NCBI GenBank assembly: GCA_029258835.1
Contig: JAPDJY010000039.1
Location: 32,001 to 96,000 of the forward strand
Reading direction: 5' to 3'
Length of the DNA stretch: 64,000 bases
Source: Thermoproteota archaeon
GTDB lineage: Archaea > Asgardarchaeota > Jordiarchaeia > Jordiarchaeales > Freyrarchaeaceae
The notes beneath the pieces were generated by a model that saw only the letters and a program-made list of their open reading frames with translations, was not told the origin of the DNA and searched no databases. Positions within the stretch are counted from its first letter, which is position 1. Every line of letters starts with the position of its first letter. The position numbers and the translations under genes were made by a program. Shown in pieces: positions 55,183 to 57,607 of this stretch.

Positions 55183-57607
55183 ATGGCCTTGTCAAGAGAC
55201 GAGAGGTTTGTCTTATGGTTTGAAGAGATCAGAAAAGACGATGTACCGATAGTAGGTGGAAAATGCGCGAATCTAGGTGAGTTAACAGCTGAAGTTAAAG
55301 TCCCAGTTCCACCAGGATTCGCTGTGACCACTCATGCATATAAGCAGTTCATAGAAACCACGAAAATAAAGGATAAGATTTTCAAGAAACTTGAAGGTTT
55401 AGACGTAAAAGATATGAAAATGCTTGAAAACGCATCGGCAGAAATAAGAAAGTTAATTGAATCAACCCCTGTACCCGAAGAAATACAGTCTGCCATCTTA
55501 AGTGCATACGATGAACTCTCTAAACGGGCGGGGAAAAATCCCTTTGTAGCCGTCCGCTCTAGCGCCTCGGCAGAGGACAGGTTTTCCAGCCCCTCAGCTG
55601 CCGGGCGCCAGTTTCGCTGGACAACAGGATACATTCTTAAACGTTACTAGAGACGAGCTGGTAAGTAGTGTTAGAAGATGCTGGAGTAGCCTTTTTACGC
55701 CAAGGGCAATAGCATATAGGGAAGAGAAGGGTTTTTCACATGAAGAAGTATCCATAGGCGTAGCTATCCAAGAGATGGTTGACGCTAAAGCAGCAGGGGT
55801 AATGTTTACTATACATCCAGTTACAGGTGAAAGAAATAAAATTCTTATTGAAGCCAATTGGGGGCTAGGAGAAGCCGTAGTAAGTGGCGCCGTAACGCCA
55901 GATACCTATGTCGTAGATAAAGAAACATTTGAGATCATCGACAAACATATTGTAACTAAAAAAGTCGAGTATGTAAGGGACCCAAAAACCGGGAAGACAG
56001 TTCACGCAGAAGTCCCCCCGGAAAGACAGAATATTCCTGCTTTAACAGACGAGGAAATAAAGGCGCTTGCAAAATATGCACTTCAAATAGAACAACATTA
56101 TAGAACACCACAGGATATAGAGTGGGCAGTTGATAAAGATGGGAGAATATTCATACTTCAAGCAAGACCTGAGACGGTCCATTCTGCAGGGGGAATTCAA
56201 GCGCAAGTATTAGAGGCTGCTGAGGAAAGAGAAGTGCTAGTAAGAGGGCTGCCAGTATCCCCAGGCCTAGGAGCAGGAAAAGTTAAAGTTATCTTAGATG
56301 CTAAGGACATAGACAAAGTTAAGGAAGGAGACATTTTAGTTACAAAAATGACCACTCCTGATTGGGTTCCAGCCATGAAAAAGGCAGCGGCAATAGTGAC
56401 TGATGAAGGGGGCTACACGTGCCATGCAGCAATAGTTTCACGTGAACTAGGTGTACCATGCATTGTTGGTACTGGAAATGCAACAGAAGTTCTTGCGAAT
56501 GTGGAGGAAGTAACCGTTGACGGAGGAAAGGGACTAGTCTACCGTGGAATAATTAAAGAAGCAGCTGAAGAGGTGGTGCCTACAGCTGCGGTAACTTATG
56601 CGATAGTGCCGACAGCAACTAAGATATATGTTAACCTTTCAATTCCAGAGATCGCTGATAAAGTTGCAAGGGAAACAAGAGCAGATGGTGTAGGGCTTCT
56701 AAGAGCAGAACACATGATGGTTACCATAGGAAAGCATCCACGCAAACTCATTGAGGAGGGTGGAGACCAGCTTATGGTGGATTCCTTTGCGGAGGGCATC
56801 AGGAAAGTTGCCGAAGCGTTTTATCCTGGTCCTGTCGTATATAGGTTCCTAGACTTTAAGCCTGACGAATTCCTAGCCCTAGAGGGAGGAGAAAAGTATG
56901 AGTTAGAGGCAGGGCATGTAGGACCAAATCCAATGATAGGCTACAGGGGACAATACAGATACGTTAAGGAGCCAGACATATTCAGGCTAGAGTGTAAAGC
57001 AATAAGAAAGGTTAGAGATGAATTTGGCCTTAAAAATGTTTGGGTAATGTTGCCTTTCGTTAGAGACATAGAGATCTTCCGGAAAGTGAAGGAGATAATG
57101 AAGCAGGAGGGGCTGGATCCCGAGAAAGATCCTGACTTTAAACTCTGGATAATGGTGGAGGTCCCAAGTAGCGTCCTGTTAATTGACAAGTTCTGTGAAG
57201 AAGGGATAAACGGAGTGTCTTTTGGCACAAACGACCTAACAATGCTGATACTTGGCGTAGACCGTAACGATGCTTCGGTACAGGAGATATACGATGAACG
57301 AAACCTAGCAGTCCTCAGGGCAATAGCTTACACAATAAAAATATGCAAAAAGTACGGGGTGACAACGTCTATTTGTGGGCAAGCACCCAGCGTTTACCCG
57401 GACTACTTAGAATTCCTAGTTAGGATGGGAGCAACATCAATAAGCGTAAACCCGGACGCTGTACAACGTACACGTGAAATGGTTGCAAGAATAGAGCAGA
57501 AGATACTGATGGAGAAAGCATTAGGAGTTAAAACAAGAATCAAAGTTGGAAAGAATTTCATAGAAGAAGTCGAGTTCTGGAAAAAAGTAGATGACAATTT
57601 AGAATAA
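55183..57607 (+). CDS. ppsA: Phosphoenolpyruvate synthase; spliced CDS join(55183..55578,55598..57607), 801 aa
   Basis: GGAGGTG SD; 'VGGKCANLGE'; splicing gives '[26 protein letters not shown]'; phospho-His 'TCHAAIVSRE'; 'SFGTNDL'. Confidence 0.93.
55579..55597 (+). other. 19-nt bulge-helix-bulge (BHB) intron in ppsA mRNA
   Basis: GAGG-AC^A-GGUU(UUCC)AGCC-CCUC-AG^C: Watson-Crick 4-bp central helix, two 3-nt bulges, about 10-bp exon-exon helix; removal restores frame and the AEDLP motif. Confidence 0.9.

Follow-up and report, generated by a model that had tools for sequence, protein, structure and literature searches.

A predicted BHB intron interrupts the phosphoenolpyruvate synthase gene across the Asgard order Jordarchaeales/Freyarchaeia

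Introduction

The closest described counterpart of the element reported here is the BHB intron of the crenarchaeal cbf5 pre-mRNA, known from Desulfurococcales and Sulfolobales (Watanabe 2002; Yokobori 2009; PMC2738675). For more than 20 years it has been the sole known BHB intron within an archaeal coding sequence (PMC2738675, PMC7714728); it was still cited as such in 2020 (PMC7714728), and the literature on it is among the references of a 2025 paper (PMC12397907). Papers dealing with Freyarchaeia and Atabeyarchaeia (PMC11291895), like a 2026 preprint about the tRNA introns of Asgard archaea, treat tRNA introns only. In our literature search the crenarchaeal cbf5 intron was the only archaeal coding-sequence BHB intron found, and no report of a ppsA intron or of Asgard mRNA BHB introns was found.

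Asgard archaea are the closest known relatives of eukaryotes. In eukaryotes, the HAC1/XBP1 messages are cleaved by Ire1 and joined by tRNA ligase or RtcB in a stress-regulated manner. Here we describe a 19-nt insert in ppsA, the gene for phosphoenolpyruvate (PEP) synthase, in an Asgard genome and its relatives, and weigh the ways in which a full-length enzyme might be made from it.

Results

The ppsA gene and its insert

The window is the whole 64,000-nt stretch of DNA that was analysed; it starts at C1:32001, and positions are given in window coordinates unless a contig is named. A first-pass annotation had placed a BHB intron at 55579-55597, and we confirmed an insert at exactly this place. 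Its 19 nt read AGGTTTTCCAGCCCCTCAG and are flanked by GCA GAG GAC and CTG CCG GGC. More fully, GCC TCG GCA GAG GAC precedes the insert and CTG CCG GGC GCC AGT TTC GCT GGA CAA CAG follows it, and the Asp and Leu codons of the conserved PpsA motif (AED|LPG) are thereby separated. The gene has the following parts.

55174..55185, + strand: SD-like GGAGGTG, then the ppsA ATG (55183), by sequence inspection
55183..55578, + strand: ppsA exon 1, 132 codons, N-terminal part of the PPDK_N nucleotide-binding domain, ending ...RSSASAED (Pfam)
55579..55597, + strand: predicted 19-nt intron, predicted cuts 55578|55579 and 55597|55598 (BHB register)
55598..57607, + strand: ppsA exon 2, 669 codons and stop, with the remaining PPDK_N, the phospho-His swivel domain and the PEP-binding domain (Pfam, open frame)
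55648..55650, + strand: TAG ending the unspliced reading, 23 codons beyond Asp132 (upstream frame)

Translated as it stands, the frame from the ATG at 55183 enters the insert and runs into this TAG, as had been claimed for the unspliced message, which limits the product to a 155-aa N-terminal fragment. The downstream frame is open to 57607, with its first ATG/GTG/TTG only at 55775, 59 codons beyond the junction. Deletion of the 19 nt gives a single frame, bearing out the earlier proposal that removal fuses two ORFs into an 801-aa PpsA with the family motif. Across the in-silico junction GAGGAC|CTGCCG the frame is continuous, the family motif is present and PPDK_N coverage is contiguous: exon 1 matches profile positions 2-123 of 328 (Pfam, E 4e-39), and exon 2 covers positions 114-315 ahead of its matches to PEP-utilizers and PEP-utilizers_C. 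The two PPDK_N matches abut, the three-domain PEP synthase architecture is complete, and the joined translation contains the swivel-histidine motif GGYTCHAAIVSRELG. From its domains, the joined 801-aa product is predicted to be a PEP synthase (PpsA; pyruvate, water dikinase), and this full-length form cannot be made unless the insert is removed. The predicted spliced junctions are GAGGAC|CUGCCGGG in this genome and GAGGAU|UUGCCAGG in Freyarchaeia, where the ppsA junction of CP147778.1 lies at about 1,661,640.

No second ppsA-like locus was found by tblastn in the 2.72-Mb, 91-contig assembly, which is 94.7% complete. The 19-mer is unique in the assembly, and this single occurrence rules out a repeated or mobile sequence. 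Contigs of two separate public DNA runs, at depths of 64 and 8.5, cover the gene from end to end with a few single-base differences and no alteration of the insert; the joined, insert-free form was not seen in the contigs of these runs. An assembly error is ruled out by these independently assembled contigs together with the relatives that carry inserts (see below).

Relatives have a TTG start at the position homologous to the ATG used here, and exon 1 is 60-75% identical to theirs. Shorter ATG-based frames in two relatives (G001 and G002) had raised the possibility of a second intron, which was ruled out since the TTG start explains them.

The neighbourhood of the gene was also inspected. Upstream lies a UPF0146-family gene (54595-55035, +), an arrangement seen as well in 6/6 further metagenome contigs from the Jordarchaeales- and Freyarchaeia-type groups, and the downstream neighbour is a V-type ATPase B subunit gene (57865-59214, +), in whose place Freyarchaeia-type contigs have ribosomal protein L16. 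Further upstream, at 53348-54509 (-), two overlapping frames, one of 286 aa with a C-terminal zinc-ribbon (CPICG...C..C) and one of 110 aa upstream of it, resemble a TnpB/OrfB-type transposon gene broken in two; the split could reflect a frameshift, decay or another small insert.

Folding of the insert and its flanks

Folding and register comparison placed the following elements on the transcript.

55562..55608, + strand: whole hBHBh' motif
55562-55566 and 55568-55572, paired with 55599-55608, + strand: outer helix
55573-55576, paired with 55592-55595, + strand: central helix GAGG/CCUC
55577-55579 and 55596-55598, + strand: bulges ACA and AGC, 3 nt each
55580-55583, paired with 55588-55591, + strand: inner stem GGUU/AGCC
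55584-55587, + strand: loop UUCC

The central helix, bulges, inner stem and loop named in the first-pass annotation were all correct. Outside them lies the outer helix CGGCA/UGCCG (55568-55572 with 55599-55603), extended beyond one bulged U by GCGCC/GGCGC (55562-55566 with 55604-55608). The locus thus has the strict hBHBh' form, with an outer helix of 7 consecutive pairs and more past the 1-nt bulge and with an inner stem of 4 bp. It also carries the hallmark of EndA substrates, a 4-bp central helix between two 3-nt bulges on opposite strands. By the established rule, EndA cleaves after the second base of each bulge; applied to both bulges, it predicts an excision of exactly 19 nt, after which AED|LPG is restored.

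For the 53-nt region the computed folding energy is -28.6 kcal/mol (z = -3.98), which none of 200 shuffles matched. When the insert was shuffled with the exons fixed, only 200 of 200,000 sequences reached the pairing of central helix and inner stem observed in this register. Constrained to the BHB, the fold has -23.5 kcal/mol, and in the thermodynamic model the unconstrained optimum of the window sequence is better by 5.6 kcal/mol, since it adds a pair to the outer helix at a cost to the central helix; this counts against a BHB intron. In several relatives the BHB is the lowest-energy fold or lies within about 1 kcal/mol of it, and the competing fold is absent or negligible there.

Distribution, covariation and selection

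The relatives go by the names Candidatus Jordarchaeales (86% identity) and Freyarchaeota/Freyarchaeia, the complete chromosome CP147778.1 among them, which places the genome in this order of Asgard archaea. Among the 11 species representatives of the order (Jordarchaeales/Freyarchaeia), ppsA was present in nine, and in each of the nine the AED|LPG boundary carries an insert, as it does in 6/6 further metagenome contigs that we retrieved through their shortened protein calls. Fourteen inserts were readable; one relative (G004), with Ns over most of its insert, was left unscored. The 14 orthologues that a sample of 200 Asgard genomes yielded from other families have no interruption; one of them is cut short by a contig end. 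In a maximum-likelihood tree the 14 PpsA sequences with the intron group together (support 94/95; 96% of bootstrap trees), consistent with an intron gained once, in the order's ancestor.

In the Jordarchaeales-type group the inserts measure 18, 19 or 20 nt, in the Freyarchaeia-type group 29 or 30 nt. This range bears on the idea that ribosomes cross the insert by bypassing or frameshifting without any RNA splicing, for which the stable hairpin at the site, resembling that of some recoding sites, could be cited. The lengths fall into all three frame phases, the 18- and 30-nt inserts contain in-frame stops, and no single frameshift rule could restore the frame in every lineage; a programmed frameshift or bypass is ruled out by these phases. 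Nor do take-off and landing codons match: the insert follows GAC or GAU, while the landing site is preceded by varying codons. Recoding would also have no need of the exact BHB geometry that is conserved. We therefore consider recoding very improbable.

The BHB register fits all 14 readable inserts, always with 3-nt bulges. The central helix is paired at 4/4 positions in 12 of them and has one A-C mismatch in the remaining two, a point that weighs against a BHB intron. These two, L011 (Freyarchaeia CP147778.1) and L119 (a JGI contig), read CCCC instead of CCUC on the 3' strand; the helix is shifted in their lowest-energy fold, and the two inserts may be relaxed BHB substrates. Across relatives the outer helix has 3-7 bp and the inner stem 3-5 bp. 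Pairing in the inner stem is complete (100%), and of the three pairs shared there, two have changed on both sides (A-U to G-C). Over the alignment, 91.6% of cells are paired, as opposed to 45-58% when partners are slid by 1-3 columns, and a shuffle control also fell below the observed pairing. The clear compensatory case is GAGAC/GUCUC versus GAGGC/GCCUC; other inner stems read GAG/CUU versus GAG/CUC, and a longer AAG.AAUGG/CCRUU.CUU occurs in Freyarchaeia.

On the exon side, the intron-bearing genes all read GCA GAG GAY | YTG CC, the codons that build the central and outer helices. Among intronless orthologues, 7/8 use the GAA codon and could form an outer helix of 0-1 bp. Judged from this codon choice, the exons appear adapted to the splice signal.

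Comparisons between genera show saturation at synonymous sites (pS about 0.8), with pN at 0.19-0.24 for exon 1 and 0.08-0.17 for exon 2; in the Freyarchaeia group, dN/dS is 0.16-0.32 and 0.06-0.09, respectively. These low values argue that both halves have remained coding sequence throughout the intron's existence, and they point to strong purifying selection on both exons. That result bears on whether ppsA is simply broken, either as a pseudogene or as a gene whose halves are made as separate polypeptides, which is how gene callers treat it in every public record of the clade. A pseudogene is ruled out by selection acting on both exons over saturated synonymous divergence, and a covarying BHB would not be expected to persist in a decaying gene. 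A two-subunit enzyme is made unlikely by the lack of any start codon in exon 2 for 59 codons past the junction and by the position of the break inside an invariant motif of one domain. As this is also the only ppsA copy in the genome, a broken or split gene is hardly credible.

RNA and protein records

A search for RNA runs covering 55400-55800 listed none. In two metatranscriptome runs that came up with the wider stretch, the gene was matched by two short contigs only, at 55206-55362 (exon 1) and 56142-56347 (exon 2); both lie away from the junction, and DNA carry-over is possible for both.

A contiguous PpsA of the clade, whether from spliced cDNA or from an intronless allele, was not found in the protein collection. 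Protein matches at least 72% identical to exon 2 are all shortened calls of 610-671 aa, and no protein longer than 231 aa in the collection exceeds 62% identity to exon 1. Short relatives of exon 1 end in ...SSASAEDKV(I/M)G and thus read into the intron. Public records of the clade hold two genes, a 'PEP/pyruvate-binding domain-containing protein' of 130-165 aa and a 'phosphoenolpyruvate synthase' of 610-671 aa. This split annotation appears in NCBI and JGI records (P0004, P0007, P0018, P0238, P0242 and P0247), and the complete Freyarchaeia genome is likewise annotated with two ppsA genes.

Splicing machinery and other inserts in the genome

The genome encodes a catalytic (alpha) subunit of the splicing endonuclease EndA (190 aa; match at C1:12233-12481, on the same contig before the window start). 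The PDB entry that matches it best is the alpha subunit of the heterotetramer from Aeropyrum pernix (E 4e-46), and the alignment spans the N-terminal segment where the Crenarchaea-type specificity loop reportedly sits. A second EndA-like protein (C6:39796-40056) has Ala aligned to the catalytic His and is probably the structural beta subunit. EndA with (alpha-beta)2 architecture, and with this specificity loop conferring broad substrate range, has been described throughout Asgard archaea (PMC5829648). Some 7 kb upstream of ppsA is the gene for the ligase.

46966..48273, - strand: RtcB RNA ligase gene (family-match range), presumed exon joiner (PF01139, E 1.6e-182, C1:78966-80273)

ARAGORN called only 23 tRNA genes in the genome, most with non-canonical or very long 'introns', and one tRNA in the window (37545-37632, -) was called differently depending on whether intron mode was on. 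As a set, the tRNA genes are heavily interrupted and were captured poorly. The few, oddly interrupted calls match the report of introns in more than 90% of tRNA genes in Freyarchaeia (PMC11291895).

Two further coding genes carry insert-like segments. At 34062-34089 (+), 28 nt split the first Fe-S motif of a GlcF/HdrD-like gene; without them the gene reads CNRTRCGYCIEECP, its frame spans some 359-366 aa and includes CCG-type motifs, and the flanks fit a BHB with GGCU/GGCU as its central helix, ACA and AAU as its bulges and a long GC inner stem. The second gene, cbf5 (TruB_N; G000:C27:11883-12251, +), lies outside the window and is the host of the classical crenarchaeal mRNA intron; here it has a 27-nt in-frame insert with TGA and TAA that interrupts the GHAGTL-DPKVTGVLP motif.

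A genome-wide scan for a strict BHB whose removal fuses two long frames gave pass counts equal to those of shifted-boundary and random-position controls. The scan is uninformative because boundaries of neighbouring genes dominate the passes, and it missed the cbf5 insert; we gave it no weight as evidence.

The ppsA intron probably points to a wider phenomenon in the lineage. We lean slightly towards the view that it is one of a lineage-wide set of coding-gene introns spliced by EndA and RtcB in Jordarchaeales/Freyarchaeia, with routine mRNA splicing by the tRNA machinery.

Discussion

We put the probability that the insert is an EndA/RtcB-spliced BHB intron in the ppsA mRNA, gained once in the ancestor of the order, at roughly 0.88. 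The core of the first-pass reading, a BHB intron whose removal restores PpsA, is supported by the register, by conservation at the same site, by compensatory stem changes, by selection on the exons and by the presence of EndA and RtcB genes.

In the mechanism that we propose, the transcript would fold into an outer helix between the exons, a central helix between exon GAGG and intron CCUC, and a short hairpin within the intron, offering two 3-nt bulges to heterotetrameric EndA. The endonuclease would cleave after the second base of each bulge, RtcB would ligate the exons to GAGGAC|CUGCCG, and the intron would probably be circularised, leaving a joined mRNA for the normal 801-aa PEP synthase. 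Splicing of the crenarchaeal cbf5 pre-mRNA by this route is a precedent (PMC2738675). Splicing would most simply be constitutive. For the ppsA junction itself we infer cleavage, ligation and lack of regulation. A consideration against the mechanism is that coupled transcription-translation could disrupt the helix, which is open to this because it lies mostly within coding sequence.

The same intron might instead be removed conditionally, depending on temperature, EndA/RtcB activity or ribosome traffic, and so act, in the manner of eukaryotic HAC1/XBP1, as a switch on gluconeogenic PEP supply. The full-length enzyme strictly requires excision, the window sequence has another fold in competition with the BHB, and the intron has been retained for very long, all of which would suit such a switch. 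Similar inserts seem to be present in unrelated genes of the same genome (cbf5 and the GlcF-like gene), however, so that general, constitutive splicing fits better than a ppsA-specific switch, and the near-absence of the competing fold in several relatives also speaks against it. Regulated splicing is, in our judgement, unlikely, though a stronger contender than recoding or a split gene; constitutive removal of a BHB intron remains the reading that we prefer.

What is new in the ppsA case is the host, a central metabolic enzyme, together with order-wide conservation in Asgard archaea, structural covariation and exon codons apparently shaped by the signal. Splicing of mRNA by the tRNA-type route may be older and wider than thought, and the ppsA intron offers a clean substrate for asking how a splice signal, coding constraints and coupled translation coexist. 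It also exposes a systematic annotation error, PpsA being recorded as two genes across the clade, and metabolic reconstructions and gene-content counts for these lineages may be biased.

Among known systems, the crenarchaeal cbf5 intron is the nearest in its working. Like it, the ppsA insert is short, lies in a protein-coding frame, has a BHB-like fold suited to an EndA of the hetero-oligomeric type, is restricted to one lineage with vertical inheritance, and was overlooked by gene callers. The two differ in host, a central-metabolism enzyme here and an RNA-modification enzyme there, and in lineage, Asgard archaea as opposed to Crenarchaeota; in addition, ppsA has a strict hBHBh' with a long exon-exon helix, and its splicing is predicted here from sequence. 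An orthologue of the cbf5 intron is ruled out by the host gene: the working is similar, the intron a different one.

The BHB introns of tRNA genes, non-canonical or multiple, in Freyarchaeia and Atabeyarchaeia (PMC11291895) and in Thermoproteales share the motif, the predicted enzymes and the lineages, but in ppsA the host RNA is an mRNA, and the outer and central helices must come from codons. The 5' UTR intron of HVO_1309 in Haloferax volcanii (PMC7714728) is a further mRNA case, in which the splicing endonuclease cuts at BHB sites; that intron sits in the untranslated leader, whereas the ppsA intron breaks the frame within a conserved motif. With the eukaryotic HAC1/XBP1 messages, ppsA would share a small intron removed without a spliceosome, a shift of frame and exons joined by a tRNA-type ligase. 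The nuclease is a different one, and the RNA signal consists of twin stem-loops in HAC1/XBP1 and of a BHB in ppsA.
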